This document shows positions 17,554 through 52,064 of a DNA stretch of 64,000 bases, piece after piece (the stretch's first letter is position 1; each line of letters opens with the position of its first letter). The stretch is from a virus. A model generated the notes under the pieces. That model was not told where the DNA came from and ran no database searches. It saw only the letters and a program-made list of their open reading frames with translations. A program made the translations under genes and the position numbers. Location of the stretch: the IMG/VR virus record IMGVR_UViG_3300038366_000033, positions 14,378-78,377 of that record; one strand, given 5' to 3'.

Positions 17554-18546
17554 ATGACTGAACCAGACGACAACGTAAAAGAGCTAGACGGTGTTGGACC
17601 CAAGACCGGAGCGGACCTGAAAGCGTCAGGACGTGGCACGGTCAGGAAGCTGGCAACAGCGAACCCTGACACCTTACCAGAAAACACCTCGCTTGGCGAG
17701 AAAAAATCAAAGGACTTGGTCCAGACGGCCAGAAACGCTTTACGTGGCGGAAGCCCGTTCGAAAACGGACTGGACTTCGAGAAAGAACAGAATAATATGG
17801 GAACTATTAGCACAGGATCTGATGACCTAGACGGCTTACTCCGTGGAGGCATCGCCGTAGGCTATCTCACCGAGGCTTTTGGTCTTTCTTCCTCTGGCAA
17901 ATCACAGCTGGCTTTCCAGTTGTGTGTCAACGCACAGTTACCGGAGGACGAGGGAGGCGCCGGAAACGGAGACATGGTAATATTCATAGACGTAGAAGAG
18001 ACCTTCAGGGCTGACAGGATTAGGTCTATGGCGAAGGCGGCAGGACTTGACCCGGACGAGGCACTCTCGAACATAGAGGTCGCAAGACCTACAGACGTGA
18101 CGGATCAGGAAAGAGCCATACAGGAGACAAGACAGTTTGACCTGGACAACGTCGCGTTGATCGTGGTCGACTCTATATCAGGCCACGTCCGGAACGAGTA
18201 TCAGGGTCGAGAAAACTTTGGTGAGCGCAGCGACCGCTTCGGTGGTATGCTAGAGGACTTGAGTAAGATGGCATCCGGAGAGACAGGTCATGACATCGCT
18301 GTGTTCTATCCCAATCAGGCAGGGAAGAAACCACAGAAACAGTACGGCGACCCAGTCTATTCCTATGGAGCATCGACTCTCGAACACCAGAGCTCTTTCA
18401 GGATGAGACTGGACGCCAGAGGATCCAAGGGATACAACGCCTCTCTGGCTGACTCACCAAACCTGCCTCCGGGTGAGTGTTATTTCGACATATACGAATG
18501 TGGCATCAACGATCAGGACCACGAGTGTGAGATATGCAGTGATTGA
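17554..18546 (+). CDS. radA: archaeal-type RadA recombinase
   Basis: N-terminal HhH LDGVGPKT, ISTGSDDLDGLLRGG, GLSSSGKSQ, FIDVEETFR, LIVVDS. Confidence 0.92.
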   Translation: MTEPDDNVKELDGVGPKTGADLKASGRGTVRKLATANPDTLPENTSLGEKKSKDLVQTARNALRGGSPFENGLDFEKEQNNMGTISTGSDDLDGLLRGGIAVGYLTEAFGLSSSGKSQLAFQLCVNAQLPEDEGGAGNGDMVIFIDVEETFRADRIRSMAKAAGLDPDEALSNIEVARPTDVTDQERAIQETRQFDLDNVALIVVDSISGHVRNEYQGRENFGERSDRFGGMLEDLSKMASGETGHDIAVFYPNQAGKKPQKQYGDPVYSYGASTLEHQSSFRMRLDARGSKGYNASLADSPNLPPGECYFDIYECGINDQDHECEICSD

Positions 18547-21845: not shown

Positions 21846-22457
21846 ATGACACTTTACATTGACAGCAGAGAGCCAGTAACTGTTCAAGCTATTGTTCAGA
21901 CGACACTGGCCGACAGAGATACAGACGCAGAAACCGAGGTCAAGGAGCTCAAGACTGGAGACTTTGTTTACAAAAACGTGGTCATAGAGAGAAAGGAGGC
22001 AAGCGATCTCGCTTCATCGATCAAGGACAGACGCCTCAAGGAACAGACCCGGCGCATGACAGAGGACTTTGAACACCAGTATATCATCGTAGAGGGTGAC
22101 CCGTATGACCTACAGTACTCCAACCTTCACGATAACTCTTTCATCGGCACTTTGGTATCCCGTAGCCATGCCGGAATCAGTATTGTCTATACGCCGGACG
22201 AAGAGGGCACCGCCTACGCCGTGAACAAGATCGTCTCGAAACACGAGGACGACGAGGAACACAGAACGATCGAGCTAGGAGAGACCACGGTCAGCGACGT
22301 AGATACAGAGGTCGCCATGCTTATGCAGATTGACGGCGTCAGTAAAAAGAAGGCCGAAAGGATCCTCGACCAGAGGGAGTTTGGAAAACTGGAAAGGCTA
22401 TGTGAGATACGCGGTATCGGCGAAGTGCTTGAGGACCGCATTAAATCAGTACTATGA
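21846..22457 (+). CDS. ERCC4/XPF-family nuclease with HhH
   Basis: IDSRE, GDF, IERKEASD, IDGVSKKKA, IRGIGE. Confidence 0.9.
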   Translation: MTLYIDSREPVTVQAIVQTTLADRDTDAETEVKELKTGDFVYKNVVIERKEASDLASSIKDRRLKEQTRRMTEDFEHQYIIVEGDPYDLQYSNLHDNSFIGTLVSRSHAGISIVYTPDEEGTAYAVNKIVSKHEDDEEHRTIELGETTVSDVDTEVAMLMQIDGVSKKKAERILDQREFGKLERLCEIRGIGEVLEDRIKSVL

Positions 22458-45683: not shown

Positions 45684-46028
45684 TTACTGGATTTCTACAT
45701 CCCATGTAATCTCCAATGTGTCGCTCGTCTGAACGTTGACAGTTGAAATAACCTGTCTAGCTAGAAGGTCGTCACTGACGCTTTCGAAAGCAGTAGCTTC
45801 CCTGACAGTCGCTGAATTACCTGTAAAGGTTCCGACTAAAGTCAGTGTGCTGCCGCTTACCGATGCGGTTAGACCTGTTGCAGTATCAACTGTGGTGCCT
45901 AGGCTTCCGTCGCCGTCTGAGAACGCTGTAGAATCTGAACCGATTCCAACTCCGTCGTAACGATTTCCTCCTGTCCCAGCTCCTATCAGCTTTGCAACGT
46001 TGTTTCGAGCTTCGCTTGGTACTCCCAT
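45684..46028 (-). CDS. virion structural protein
   Basis: GIGSDSTAF, VREA, LLARQV, DTLEITW. Confidence 0.6.
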   Translation of the reverse strand: MGVPSEARNNVAKLIGAGTGGNRYDGVGIGSDSTAFSDGDGSLGTTVDTATGLTASVSGSTLTLVGTFTGNSATVREATAFESVSDDLLARQVISTVNVQTSDTLEITWDVEIQ

Positions 46029-46055
46029 ATCTAATTTTTCACCTCGTAGTATTGT

Positions 46056-46268
46056 TTAAATCTTAAATTCCTGTGACTCTACCTGCTTCTCATTACCGTC
46101 CTCATCAATCACACGGGCTGTTATCTCTCCCTCCATGTTCACATCCTGAAGCAGTCCTGAGGGGGTGTCGCCGTCTTCAAGCTTGTTGTGAAGCTTTTCT
46201 AGCAGTTCTATCTTATCCTTTTTTGGCTTCTCTTCAAAGTTGTCGAAATCTATGTCTTCTTCTGTCAT
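46056..46268 (-). CDS. hypothetical protein
   Basis: coupled ORF. Confidence 0.55.
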   Translation of the reverse strand: MTEEDIDFDNFEEKPKKDKIELLEKLHNKLEDGDTPSGLLQDVNMEGEITARVIDEDGNEKQVESQEFKI

Positions 46269-48072: not shown

Positions 48073-48330
48073 TTATCTCCTGTCGTCGTTGAAAGCTATG
48101 AAGCCGACATCTACATCTGATGAAGCGCCAGTTCCCAGCGTAAAACCGTTCTGGTCTTTACTGACTACAAAAACGTTTGCGTCAGACTGAGCGGTGGCGA
48201 CAACTTCAGGCTCGCTTTTCATCGAACGATTAAAAGCAAAGCTTGTATCAGCTCCTCCGGAAAGAGTTACAGCGCCAGCTCTTAGATTCCTGGTCTGAAC
48301 TCCTCCTTTGCTAAAGCTTGCATCTCCCAT
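48073..48330 (-). CDS. small capsid decoration/fibre-like protein
   Basis: directly after capsid gene; GAGGTGA RBS. Confidence 0.55.
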   Translation of the reverse strand: MGDASFSKGGVQTRNLRAGAVTLSGGADTSFAFNRSMKSEPEVVATAQSDANVFVVSKDQNGFTLGTGASSDVDVGFIAFNDDRR

Positions 48331-48363
48331 TTTAATTTTTCACCTCTTAGTATTGGTTATATT

Positions 48364-48572
48364 GTGGTTTTGGCGTGTACCGTTCGGCCTTCGGCTCGAC
48401 ATTGCCATCCTGATTGGATACAGGCGTTGACTCCGTGGTGTCCGAGCTCACGCTTTCGCGTCTGGCCGCCCCACCCAGATAAATGAAAAACGGTCGGGGA
48501 TAAAGGGTATAGTGGCTTCGCCAAGAGACTTACGTAGTTTTGCCTCAGGGCGTCACCGGAAAGTCAGACTAG
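48364..48572 (-). ncRNA. candidate structured RNA downstream of capsid gene
   Basis: GC-rich ORF-free gap with multiple stems and a possible pseudoknot. Confidence 0.55.
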
Positions 48573-48576
48573 GTTT

Positions 48577-49551
48577 TTACGCCTTTGTCTGAATCAAGCT
48601 AAGAGCGTCTGGCTGGACTGTGTTCGTTTCGAACGCGTGATCGTAGTAGATCCTCTGTGCGTTCTCTTCCCTGTTGTACTGCATGTCCATGTTCGGAAGC
48701 TCCTTGTAAGCAAGAAGCGGTCCGACTGCACGGCCATCAGGTCCTTCTCCAACTAGGTAAGCGAACTCATCTCCTGCGTCATCTCTGACAGCTGCCTGTG
48801 TCTTCATAACTGAGACACCTAGGTACTGTCCAATCTCTCCTTCCATAACTACTTCGTCATCTCCGTACTCGGAAGCGTTTGTGAACTGAGAGTCTTTTCT
48901 GAGATCATTAATCTGTGCAGGTGATACTATGAGGAATCTTGGTGTGTAGTTATTACGTTCGACGTTCTCCATTGCATCAGCAATAGCTTCAGGTGTAAGC
49001 TCTCCTGAGCCAGTCTGATCAACGACATTTGCTGCAGGTGTTGCGTCTACAATCTCATCACGGATTGCTAGGTCAACGTCCTCTGCGATCTGTTGAGTTA
49101 CCGCATTACGCGCTTCCTCAACAAGATCAATGTTCGTTGTCATCATAGCTTGCTTACTTATCTCGATACCGCCTGAGACAAACGAATCTGCCGTAATAGT
49201 TGTCTCAATGGTGTCAAGATTCTCAAGCTGCTGGTAGGTTCTGTCTTCTCCCTCAACTGACTGTTGATCAGTCAAGTCAAGGTGACCTGTCGTCCTCGGA
49301 ATCTCCAAGGTGCTGTCTCCAACATCAACAAGGTCATCATAGACTGAAGCAACTCTTTCGAACACTCTTCTTTCTTCAGCGTCTCGAATTACTCTTTCGA
49401 GGAACTCAATCGCTGTAAAGTCGGAAAGATTGTCTCCTGCGTTCGTGGTGGTGCCTGTAGTTGTGGCTCCGCCTGTTGCCTGCAGTTCAGCTACCTTCTC
49501 TGAAAGCCTCTGCCTATCTTTGGCTTTCTTTCCTTTTGCCATTCTTGTCAT
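48577..49551 (-). CDS. major capsid protein (HK97 fold)
   Basis: GDSTLEIP, QQIAEDVD, RFLIVSPAQINDLRKD, GEIGQYLGVSV. Confidence 0.9.
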   Translation of the reverse strand: MTRMAKGKKAKDRQRLSEKVAELQATGGATTTGTTTNAGDNLSDFTAIEFLERVIRDAEERRVFERVASVYDDLVDVGDSTLEIPRTTGHLDLTDQQSVEGEDRTYQQLENLDTIETTITADSFVSGGIEISKQAMMTTNIDLVEEARNAVTQQIAEDVDLAIRDEIVDATPAANVVDQTGSGELTPEAIADAMENVERNNYTPRFLIVSPAQINDLRKDSQFTNASEYGDDEVVMEGEIGQYLGVSVMKTQAAVRDDAGDEFAYLVGEGPDGRAVGPLLAYKELPNMDMQYNREENAQRIYYDHAFETNTVQPDALSLIQTKA

Positions 49552-52034
49552 TGGAACATCATCTCCTTTGTTGCTGAAACTCCGCTATCAGAGTTCATCT
49601 GTGAGAAAATCTGGGCGTGAAGTTCTTCGTCAGAAAGCTCTGATACTTCCTCACGTAGGTCTTCTGGGCCCTCCTCATCGCCTGATGCCTGAGTAGCTCT
49701 CTGAGGGTTGGCTACCTTCTCAGATAGTTCTTCAACTTCCTCATCTTTCTCCTCAAGCTTCTCTTCAAGGTCTGAGATTTTTTCCTCGAACATCTGTGTA
49801 ACTTCGTCGATCTTTTCCTCGACATCTTTGTTCGATTCTTCGAATTTCTCAGCAGCCTCTGATAGACTCATATCTGGATTTTGCTTCCGGAACTCCTCAA
49901 ACTCAGAAAGTTCCGTGTCAGGAGCTTCTGATTCTTCGACGCTGTTTCCAGCCTCTTCTTCTTCCTCGTCTCCAAGTTCTTGCTTCAGAGAGTCGACGAC
50001 TTCACTTTTGAAGTCCTCTAGCTCATCCGCTGTAACGTAGTCCTCAACAGTTTCTTCTTCCTGTTCGGAAGCTTCTTCTGCCTTCGGCTCTTGATTTTCT
50101 TCTGCCATAGGATTTTTCACCATAACATCTTTTTCGCTGCTCTCGGATTCACCCTTCTTCGGGTGACCGTCAGGGAGCAAGTCATTATCTTGTGTGTATG
50201 CGTCATTCTCGGGGTTACCGTTCCTGACTAGATATAGAAATGCGTTCACTCGGGCCATCGACCACTGTTGTGCTGACATACCTGGTCTGTGCGTATCTTC
50301 GTACGCGCCCATTCCTCTGTTGTATACTTTCTTGAGCATGGTCTTGGTGACCTTCTTACCTTCTTCGTCGCCATGCTTCTCGTTATGTTCTTCTACCTTG
50401 CTTTCGATAGCCTTCTCTTGACTGTCGCTAATTAGCTCCATAGTATCTTCATTTTCGATGGCGTCACTGATCGAGTCGCTGATTTCATCTTGATCCTCCT
50501 TGTCAGGATCAAACTTTCTGACTGGTGAGGCGTTTGTAATATCTTCAAGCCTCTCATCACTGATAGCATCATCGCTTGGTGTATTCCCCCACGGTCCGAC
50601 TTCGTCCATATCCTTTCTGCGGACGTCCCCGGTAGGGTGCCATACGCCGTCATCGTCCTGAACATACATTCTGATGTCGACCTTCAGTTGACCGTCCTCG
50701 CTGTCTGGCTCAATTACACGAATGACTTTACCGTGTGCTTCGAACCCTTCCTCCGGTTCCCACTGTACCCAGTCGTCTTCTCCGACGGGCATGTCCTCTG
50801 CCATATCAACCTCGTCAAAGCTGGCGTCCTCGAAGTTCGAGTTTGCCATCTCTGTCAACATCTCCTGTACCTCCAGTACTGTGTCGCTGTCGATGCCTTC
50901 AACCTGAGATGCTCTTGCCTTCGCGTTTCCGAGTGCGGAAAGTGAGAGCTCTCCATCTGGGAATACTACAGGCAGTGAAAGGTCGCCGTAGTTTTCGGCC
51001 GGGAAGCCGGAACTTGATAGTACAAATTTTTCTTCAATCATCTCTTTCTCGTCGTCCGGAAGCTCTGAGTATGTGTCCTCCGAAACGTCAAAGTCCTCTA
51101 GGTCTGGTCTGGACCAATCTCTTTCTGGTGCCAGTCCGTCAAACTCTGGCTTGTGTACTTCGTAACTCATCTCCTGCATAGAGACGAATCTGTCGTCACC
51201 GAAGTCTGCGTCAAAGTTGCCGTTTGCAAGGTTGTCTGTAAGTTTCTCTACACGCTCGATCTCGCTGTCCTCGATACCTGATACCTGTGACACGCGAGAC
51301 TTTGCTTGCTGTAGTGCGCTTCTGTTGAGCTCTCCTTCAGTAGTCACGACTGGAAGAGCGTAGTCTGTGTACTGGTCTGCAGGGAACCCTGACTTACTGA
51401 CCAAAAAGTGCTTGCCGATCGCGGTCTTCTGTTCTTCAGATAGTTCACTGTAGTTGCTGTGACCGACAAAGTCCTTCAGGGAAGGTGCGTCAAACTCGCT
51501 GTCGCCTACTTCTCTGTACTTTGGTCTGTGTACACTCAGGTCCTCAAGTACGCTTGTGATATCTTCGTTCAGCCAAGTCGTCTTGACCGCAGGATTAATC
51601 ACAAGTGAAAAGTTCTCGAACTCGAAGTCCTGCATCTTGTTCTGGTCGTCGACCATGCCGTCAGCCTTTGGCGATACTCCGAAAGGAGCACCGTATTCTA
51701 GGTTCATGGCCGCTTGCTTGTCTGTAATCACGAGATCGCTGACTACATCGTCTCCTTCCATTCTCACGTTCTCGACTTTACCGACGTACATGTCAGCGGA
51801 TCTGTCGTCGTGATCGTAGAAAAGAGATGCGTTTGGTGGATTCTGGTCGCCAGGTTGCTGGTCCATATTGAAATCTGTACGATTAACTGCTTCTCTGAGC
51901 TCCTGTGCCGTCCACTGTAGTCCGTTCCACTGTCCCTCGCTCAATACTGTAGCATCTTCGACGCGATACGGAACAGATACCTCGCTCTCAAGATCCATGA
52001 CCTCATCGGCCGAGAGCTTTGTTACAGACTCCAT
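49548..52034 (-). CDS. prohead protease-scaffold polyprotein with inserted accessory domains
   Basis: EGQWNG, FYDH, VGKV, GVS, FSLVINPA; acidic coiled-coil C-terminus; start moved to ATG 52034 behind the late promoter. Confidence 0.8.
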   Translation of the reverse strand: MESVTKLSADEVMDLESEVSVPYRVEDATVLSEGQWNGLQWTAQELREAVNRTDFNMDQQPGDQNPPNASLFYDHDDRSADMYVGKVENVRMEGDDVVSDLVITDKQAAMNLEYGAPFGVSPKADGMVDDQNKMQDFEFENFSLVINPAVKTTWLNEDITSVLEDLSVHRPKYREVGDSEFDAPSLKDFVGHSNYSELSEEQKTAIGKHFLVSKSGFPADQYTDYALPVVTTEGELNRSALQQAKSRVSQVSGIEDSEIERVEKLTDNLANGNFDADFGDDRFVSMQEMSYEVHKPEFDGLAPERDWSRPDLEDFDVSEDTYSELPDDEKEMIEEKFVLSSSGFPAENYGDLSLPVVFPDGELSLSALGNAKARASQVEGIDSDTVLEVQEMLTEMANSNFEDASFDEVDMAEDMPVGEDDWVQWEPEEGFEAHGKVIRVIEPDSEDGQLKVDIRMYVQDDDGVWHPTGDVRRKDMDEVGPWGNTPSDDAISDERLEDITNASPVRKFDPDKEDQDEISDSISDAIENEDTMELISDSQEKAIESKVEEHNEKHGDEEGKKVTKTMLKKVYNRGMGAYEDTHRPGMSAQQWSMARVNAFLYLVRNGNPENDAYTQDNDLLPDGHPKKGESESSEKDVMVKNPMAEENQEPKAEEASEQEEETVEDYVTADELEDFKSEVVDSLKQELGDEEEEEAGNSVEESEAPDTELSEFEEFRKQNPDMSLSEAAEKFEESNKDVEEKIDEVTQMFEEKISDLEEKLEEKDEEVEELSEKVANPQRATQASGDEEGPEDLREEVSELSDEELHAQIFSQMNSDSGVSATKEMMFQ

Positions 52035-52048
52035 ACTAAGACCGGAAA

Positions 52049-52064
52049 TTAGTCGCATTTATAA
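52049..52064 (-). promoter_or_regulatory. late promoter motif TTATAAATGCGACTAA (copy 2)
   Basis: TATA about 25-30 nt before ATG 52034. Confidence 0.75.

Follow-up and report, generated by a model that had tools for sequence, protein, structure and literature searches.

The gap that follows the major capsid protein gene in the 64,000-nt stretch of DNA analysed here (the window) carries, as judged from comparison of related sequences, a conserved structured RNA of two domains and ~190 nt (~48368-48557). It is read on the minus strand, which is the mRNA strand of the late genes in this part of a 78-kb IMG/VR virus record. From 5′ to 3′, the fold consists of a hairpin (H1-H3), a helix P0 with a U-rich loop, a three-way-junction core, the hairpin P5 and the sequence AAAA. 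An earlier note on this DNA had proposed a functional structured RNA beyond a simple terminator on the mRNA strand, and this is upheld by covariation seen in eight helices, by G-U pairs on the sense strand, by the lack of a shared reading frame and by a core conserved at least as well as the 3′ end of the capsid gene.

The capsid gene (48577-49551, minus strand, 324 aa) lies directly upstream of the RNA. Its product matches Pfam Phage_capsid_4 (3.7e-11) and the PHROG major head protein (3.7e-17), and its homologues carry the JGI label 'N4-gp56 family major capsid protein'. The gap between this gene and the following small ORF is 246 nt long (48331-48576) and is the largest in the late module, where other genes overlap or are 1-56 nt apart. 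The small ORF (48073-48330, minus strand, 85 aa) is located 3′ of the RNA in every relative; it is syntenic in all seven RNA-carrying sequences and present also in relatives without the RNA. Its product seems to be H-type-lectin-like at sub-threshold level: Pfam H_lectin hits in the homologues of L151 (2707-3000, E 2.6e-4) and L011 (2724-2978, E 0.07) are both below the cut-off, and the window's own protein had no Pfam match. It may be a head-decoration or head-fibre protein. The ORF is longer in some distant relatives (133-275 aa), and in L018 its AUG is replaced by AUC (L018:2717-2719) at the usual SD distance (AGGUGA-UUAUUU-AUC). The L018 frame continues into the conserved protein; the AUC reflects a sequencing error or else is a start codon of non-canonical type. 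Upstream of the capsid gene, an 836-aa protein (49548-52058, minus strand) with a weak prohead-protease match and a DUF5824 domain looks like a large fused protease/scaffold/cargo protein.

We infer that the source is probably a tailed virus of halophilic archaea. The archaeal host is suggested by a RadA/Rad51-type recombinase with an N-terminal HhH domain (17554-18546, plus strand; Rad51 9e-48 vs RecA 2e-11), by a short XPF-like nuclease with ERCC4 and HhH domains (21846-22457, plus strand), by a plus-strand gene block that terminates in CCC-TTTTT, by TATA-like boxes ~30 nt before the leaderless-looking starts of plus-strand genes near this block end, and by the Altiarchaeum virus capsid (29 % identity), which was the sole match of the capsid in a tblastn search of GenBank phages. 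The RNA region itself had no blastn match among GenBank phages. Viral metagenomes contain the window DNA in full. Small word shares were found in one marine and one hypersaline-lake run, neither of which names a habitat; the marine run gave a single low-depth contig, ending short of the RNA core, and no contig of the hypersaline-lake run aligned. The published Haloquadratum viruses are 34 kb long and different from the window's virus (PMC12418951).

Capsid-protein searches of IMG/VR and metagenome contigs gave relatives that share the gene order of the window. Seven distinct sequences (the window and six relatives) from about five clades have retained the element in the gap that separates the capsid gene from the small ORF, and five IMG/VR records carry it. 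Capsid identity to the window is 81 % for L003 (an identical sequence was independently assembled as L009), 78 % for L004, 74 % for L005, 51 % for L018, 39 % for L011 and 38 % for L013. The RNA occurs in one copy per genome and always at the junction of the two genes. Its 3′ 105-115 nt, i.e. the core, show 68-92 % pairwise identity, compared with 63-88 % for the final 450 nt of the capsid coding sequence, and the core identity equals or exceeds that of the capsid 3′ end in 19 of the 21 pairs; the 5′ part has a pairwise identity of only 46-75 %. Around the conserved element, both flanks (stop codon to 5′ hairpin, and P5 to SD) differ in length and base sequence from one relative to the next. 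Several lineages have extra hairpins that lie 5′ of the element, on the capsid stop codon or immediately behind it (L003:3958-3995, L004:4004-4020, L005:4014-4034, L011:2427-2450, L018:2441-2456); the window is without one.

Motif scans of IMG/VR for further members recovered only the four relatives already known and chance coding matches. A motif scan of GTDB genome contigs says little, with at least 120 chance matches and none of the 80 loci listed scoring with the covariance model. The more distant capsid relatives, namely L014 and eight IMG/VR viruses at 23-34 % capsid identity, are without the RNA. Behind their capsid gene lie T-rich tracts, simple hairpins or both, and in most of them the homologous small ORF comes next. 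Two GC-rich hairpins (CUCCCCAUG..CAUGGGGAG and CCCCCU..AGGGGG) are located between the capsid gene and the small ORF in L014 (L014:1873-1965), with no U-tract.

The earlier note had suggested looking for covariation downstream of the capsid genes of relatives, and it is there. We built a covariance model, re-aligned all matches and used this model-fitted alignment of seven sequences for the main pair count. The core comprises 26 pairs, with 97.8 % of cells paired and compensatory double changes in 13 of the pairs. None of 500 shuffles reached any of the core pairing measures, and when the partners were slid by 1-3 columns as a control, at most two compensatory pairs appeared. P1, P2, P3, P5 and an approximate P4 had been read by hand from a MAFFT alignment; RNAalifold, run on the plain, unfitted MAFFT alignment, gave the same helices (P1, P2, P3, P4b and P5, also P4a) and split P4 into P4a and P4b. 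The P4a register that it supplied accounts for an otherwise odd CA-to-UG change in L004. G-U pairs, which would be A-C mismatches on the opposite strand, account for 25 of the 182 core cells, and the structure therefore belongs to the mRNA-sense strand. The folding energy is unremarkable, with z-scores of -0.26 for 260 nt and -0.65 for the window's core, so the case rests on conservation and covariation. The sole part that stands out energetically is the 5′ hairpin of the window (46 nt, z -2.83, reached by 0 of 200 shuffles).

Searches against known RNAs were negative. No Rfam 15 family matched at the gathering threshold over the 64-kb window, nor did any match 48250-48650 (E values up to 10) or the loci of five relatives (E values up to 1), and ARAGORN recovered no tRNA or tmRNA genes in the window. 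By eye, no strict bulge-helix-bulge was present on the consensus; tandem purine pairs (GA/AA beside H1 and GGA/GA beside P4a), again judged only by eye, lack the 3-nt bulge geometry of a K-turn.

The same comparison makes it hardly credible that the locus holds no RNA element at all and is instead a small protein gene or a DNA-level site such as an origin, a packaging site or a promoter array. Long sense-strand frames do occur in single sequences, frame +2 of the window is stop-free across the element, and a TATA-like motif lies just downstream. However, every frame is shifted by 1-2-nt indels that distinguish close relatives, and none is open in all seven sequences, which disposes of the conserved small ORF that the earlier note had named as an alternative explanation. 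Neither an SD nor a start codon precedes the frames, and the apparent shared peptides only reflect nucleotide conservation. Moreover, the stem substitutions are compensatory rather than codon-patterned, and the abundant G-U pairs make the structure strand-specific.

The 5′ domain (48514-48557, minus strand, as are all features below unless noted) is a long hairpin that appears in the MFE fold of all seven sequences folded separately. Its base is formed by H1, GGU (48555-48557) with GCC (48514-48516), which is CGU/GCG in L004 and AGU/GCU in L013. Next to it lies a 2x2 purine loop, GA/AA in the window and GA/AA, GA/GA or AA/AA among the sequences, with an irregular GGC/AGA in L005. H2, CGCC (48549-48552) with GGCG (48519-48522), has 3-7 bp and a wholly different sequence between clades. 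After an internal loop follows H3, GAGGC (48542-48546) with GUCUC (48525-48529), of the GGC/GUC type, and beyond it an RNAA/RWA loop and, in six of the seven sequences, a further hairpin H4, with a 12-nt loop in the window. On the plain MAFFT alignment, H1 and H2 together are 94 % paired, with compensatory changes in four of eight pairs. Another candidate, a long-range pairing of the bases that precede GUGAC with those that precede GGGG, was superseded by H1.

The two domains are connected by a pyrimidine-rich linker (48496-48513), in which ACCC (48505-48508) is the 5′ strand of the helix Pk and CCCC (48496-48499) that of P0. Then comes the U-rich loop of P0 (48473-48495), with U5 at 48486-48490 followed by UUUAU and with GGGU (48473-48476) as the 3′ strand of Pk, and finally GGGG (48469-48472), the 3′ strand of P0, which is invariant except for GGAGG in L013. 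P0 is thus CCCC/GGGG in six sequences and CCUCC/GGAGG in L013, which counts as one compensatory event. It is part of the full-element MFE structure of the window, L003, L005 and L013, and in L018 and L011 its register is shifted or extended. Within the window's subclade, bases 5-7 nt before CCCC can form Pk with the bases just before GGGG: ACCC/GGGU in the window, GCCC/GGGC in L003, CGGCGU/ACGCCG in L004 and CAGCGU/ACGCUG in L005, i.e. two compensatory events as read from the linker strings. The full-element MFE of L004 selects Pk over P0. Pk crosses P0 and their 3′ strands are 0-1 nt apart, so the two would form either a strained pseudoknot or, with greater probability, alternative conformers.

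A U-rich tract of 12-27 nt is present at this place in all seven sequences. The predicted unpaired probability of the loop is 0.56-0.85, compared with 0.39-0.51 for the whole element. Runs of 4-6 U are found in six of the seven sequences, several of which have more than one; L003 has only U3-U4. As in archaeal U-tract terminators, a U-run lies shortly 3′ of the stop codon. The arrangement of a bacterial intrinsic terminator, a GC-rich hairpin with a U-run within 0-2 nt, was not found in the element: the base of the 5′ hairpin is a weak 3-bp stem with a 2x2 loop, and the first U-run is 1-9 nt away in five sequences. In L004 and L005 there is no U-run near the 5′ hairpin, and the main U-tract sits in the P0 loop. 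The capsid message probably terminates, or has its 3′ end, in the U-tract. We also considered a promoter within this tract and rejected it, as transcription would then start inside P2.

As to function, at slightly below an even chance we favour a cis-acting element at the post-capsid U-tract that sets 3′-end formation, read-through and stability of the capsid message. The RNA would be read on the mRNA strand within the late transcript. The U-rich tract would be the site where the capsid message terminates or receives its 3′ end, with aCPSF1 in the archaeal host, and the 5′ hairpin would leave the abundant capsid mRNA with a protected 3′ end. The core and P0 (and Pk) would fold only on read-through transcripts and, once folded, would set the share of transcription and of stable RNA reaching the downstream head and tail genes. 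What speaks for such a cis role is that the U-rich tract is central in every copy and predicted to be unpaired; the CCC-TTTTT end of the plus-strand gene block and the single copy of the RNA, always at this junction, point the same way. We take the tract as the 3′-end site, and the flanking domains as its elaboration, because of the T-tracts or hairpins in distant relatives and because, according to PMC8716108, how well termination works in archaea is graded by the number and length of U-tracts in concert with aCPSF1. Of the three functions proposed in the earlier note (an abundant late ncRNA, a ribozyme or an mRNA-processing element), the last, understood as processing or 3′-end formation, appears to match the anatomy best, since the element is built around a U-tract that also follows the capsid gene in distant relatives. 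L003, without a U-run longer than 4, counts against this role of the tract, as does the bridging of the tract by P0 and Pk, so that at least part of the function should need read-through RNA. The main argument against a cis terminator or stabiliser is that the three-way junction, the GNRA loop and ~20 invariant unpaired bases exceed its needs; such constraint suggests, and is more typical of, aptamers or ribozymes.

These features belong to the three-way-junction core (48385-48468), in which every cell of P1-P4b is paired in the re-aligned pair count. P1, CGGCC (48464-48468) with GGCCG (48385-48389), closes the junction and has compensatory changes in four of five pairs, the relatives displaying UGGGC/GCCUA, CAGGC/GCCUG, CUGGU/GCCAG, GCAGU/GCUGC and UCAGC/GCUGA. 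P2 (48450-48461) has 4 bp, all four of them compensatory, under an invariant GAAA loop. P3, CUCGG (48442-48446) with UCGAG (48395-48399), is invariant apart from a G-U to G-C change (CUCGG/YCGAG). It is followed by a conserved purine-rich internal loop and then by P4a, GUCA (48428-48431) with UGGC (48404-48407), and P4b, CCUG (48421-48424) with CAGG (48409-48412), which are separated by an ACG/A internal loop and are compensatory in two of four pairs each. The junction bases are invariant while the stems covary.

The core is followed by an AAC linker, P5 and AAAA (48368-48384 together). The 3-bp stem of P5, GGU (48379-48381) with GCC (48372-48374), and the AAAA (48368-48371) are invariant, and the stem is 1-2 pairs longer in L018, L011 and L013. 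The remaining A/U-rich spacer (48331-48367) is poorly conserved and variable in length and sequence, with ~22-36 nt between P5 and the SD, and contains the invariant SD GAGGUGA (48340-48346). No conserved pairing between the RNA, including the core, and the SD was seen in the relatives compared. A near-copy (90 %, 30 nt) of the translation-initiation cassette ACUAAGAGGUGAAAAAUUAAA is located at 46032-46061 (minus strand) before the ORF 45684-46028, i.e. the SD cassette is repeated in the late module. The spacer also contains a TATA-like motif, (A/C)TATA(A/C), at ~48352-48359, which is kept in L003, L004, L005, L018, L011 and L013, ~8-10 nt upstream of the SD; from the motif to the start of the small ORF it is ~22-27 nt. 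An archaeal promoter could thus lie inside the late module here and yield a leaderless mRNA beside the SD-led read-through mRNA.

The motifs listed in the earlier note are all literally present on the minus strand where it had placed them, and of the helices it drew, ACGC-GAAA-GCGU survives as P2, as does the U-tract; most of the others are not conserved. In the 5′ domain, GACUU/AAGUC, GCC-CUGA-GGC and GGC-GAA-GCC give way to GGU/GCC, CGCC/GGCG and GAGGC/GUCUC. The UCUGG/CCAGA hairpin clashes with the covarying P0 and P1 and is absent from the consensus. The stem GCUCG(G)ACA/UGUCGAGC contains the CUCGG/UCGAG of P3 in a different register, and AUCC/GGAU with GCC/GGC is replaced by CCUG/CAGG with GUCA/UGGC. 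The proposed pseudoknot between the loop GUGGGGCGG and CGCC-AAAA-CCAC has to be given up, as CCAC varies (AUCU, UCUA, ACCU and others), P0 and P1 take up GGGG and CGGCC, and P5 takes up GCC. The description 'pseudoknot-capable' holds in another sense, through the crossing helix Pk in the window's subclade, and not through the loop-to-tail pairing.

DNA contigs of four runs were aligned to the RNA region; from run X6 no contig aligned. Runs X3 and X4, both from one virome study, each contain a mixture of related strains, two or three at the least (window 48299-48709). Two variant haplotypes change the P4b pair 48422/48411 from U-A to A-U, and among the positions listed, the 3′ strand of P1 is changed to GCCUG (the P1 5′ strand is not among these positions). 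Another variant, with the loose end GGCGAAGCC...ACCC...CCCC, keeps the 3′ strands of H2 and H1, the 5′ strand of Pk and P0. In one haplotype, 145 unalignable letters stand in place of 48477-48600, a segment that covers the RNA's 5′ half together with the last part of the capsid gene, while the core aligns, as expected if the core is under the stronger constraint.

An alternative but unlikely reading is that the core is an aptamer for a small molecule or protein that regulates read-through or downstream expression in the manner of a riboswitch or translational operator. Candidate protein ligands would include the capsid or decoration protein, or a Sm-like or L7Ae-type host protein. The three-way junction with its invariant GAAA opposite the conserved purine-rich internal loop, the invariant junction bases between covarying stems and the position upstream of a conserved ORF all fit an aptamer. 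The U-rich single strand between the two domains of the element also resembles the arrangement of a Sm site. However, no riboswitch or leader of Rfam matched (window at E up to 10, five relatives at E up to 1), and for a head protein of lectin-like type a ligand makes no evident sense. An expression platform of the usual kind is also missing, because the spacer varies and no conserved SD pairing was seen.

Many self-cleaving ribozymes are carried by phages, and a compact fold with invariant unpaired bases, at an intercistronic place where processing would be useful, would also suit a new self-cleaving ribozyme whose cut would part the capsid message from the one that follows. We consider this very unlikely. 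No hammerhead, twister, twister-sister, pistol, hatchet, HDV-like or other Rfam ribozyme matched, no candidate cleavage site can be named, and what support there is comes purely from the architecture. Taken more broadly, it is rather doubtful that the core represents a new class of complex-fold RNA of archaeal viruses which, as a ribozyme or as an aptamer that senses a ligand or protein, controls read-through beyond the capsid terminator. The alternative pairings P0 and Pk across the U-tract would then be the switch, and no riboswitch- or ribozyme-like regulator of virion gene dosage would have been known from archaeal viruses before.

The RNA might also be cut from the late transcript and act in trans as a stable, abundant ncRNA, be it a packaging, virion or assembly RNA or a titrator of a host factor. 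It is a discrete module with variable flanks, its two domains are joined by a single-stranded segment, and it is located in the most highly expressed late region. This is nevertheless quite unlikely, as neither a promoter nor a terminator of its own was recognised, the Rfam phage pRNA model and other families did not match, and the genome encodes an ordinary large terminase and portal.

Structured-RNA motifs have already been predicted from IMG/VR in large numbers, as 8,495 'DNAVirus_X' motifs with an average of 67 nt and a maximum of 151 nt (PMC10690425). The element resembles them as a case of intergenic covariation in uncultured viruses, and its five IMG/VR records exceed the threshold of three used in that study. 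Unlike them, it is ~190 nt long, and at best a fragment may be among those motifs.

With the phi29 pRNA, the element shares that it is virus-encoded, ~170-190 nt long and composed of two domains joined by a single-stranded stretch. It differs in that the pRNA model does not match, the terminase is standard, and the genomic place and timing are different, the pRNA being an early transcript encoded at the genome end. No complementary loops for intermolecular pairing, as in the pRNA, were identified in the element. The c-di-GMP-I (GEMM-I) riboswitch is a three-way-junction aptamer with a GNRA tetraloop that docks on a neighbouring helix. Here too, P1 closes the junction and a short GAAA-capped helix stands beside a longer helix with a conserved internal loop. 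However, the GEMM-I model is not matched, there is no expression platform, and the 11-nt receptor motif is not conserved, UAUGG being found only in L018.

Hairpins, partial terminators and stabilisers are known directly after the major capsid gene of tailed phages, such as T7 T-phi after gene 10, and the Rhodobacter puf operon contains intercistronic hairpins. The element is similar in its place directly after the most highly expressed late gene, in the combination of hairpin and U-run and in the presumed purpose of raising capsid mRNA relative to the downstream genes. Unlike these, it has ~190 nt and nine helices, with a three-way junction, a GNRA loop that never varies and many unpaired bases that are likewise invariant, and its U-tract lies inside a helix-closed loop and not directly behind a GC-rich stem. 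It is also similar to the aCPSF1/FttA U-tract terminators of archaea (PMC8716108, PMC7515710) in having a U-rich tract shortly after the stop codon; T-runs also close other gene blocks here and follow the capsid gene in relatives. The known terminators of this kind need no flanking structure, whereas here the tract lies between two folded domains and is bridged by covarying helices.

The element thus belongs to no Rfam family. In its probable mode of action it comes closest to the post-capsid terminators and stabilisers in late operons of phages and to archaeal U-tract terminators, and it is far more elaborate than either. To our knowledge, archaeal viruses have yielded very few structured RNAs, and we know of little on how their late operons set the excess of capsid over other virion proteins. 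What we describe is an elaborate and well-supported RNA exactly at the control point of capsid dosage. It offers an object for studying the control of termination and read-through in archaea and the protection of RNA ends in high salt, and possibly a new aptamer or ribozyme fold. If the terminator reading is true, a post-capsid terminator of the kind compared here has become a complex RNA machine within a narrow clade of viruses.
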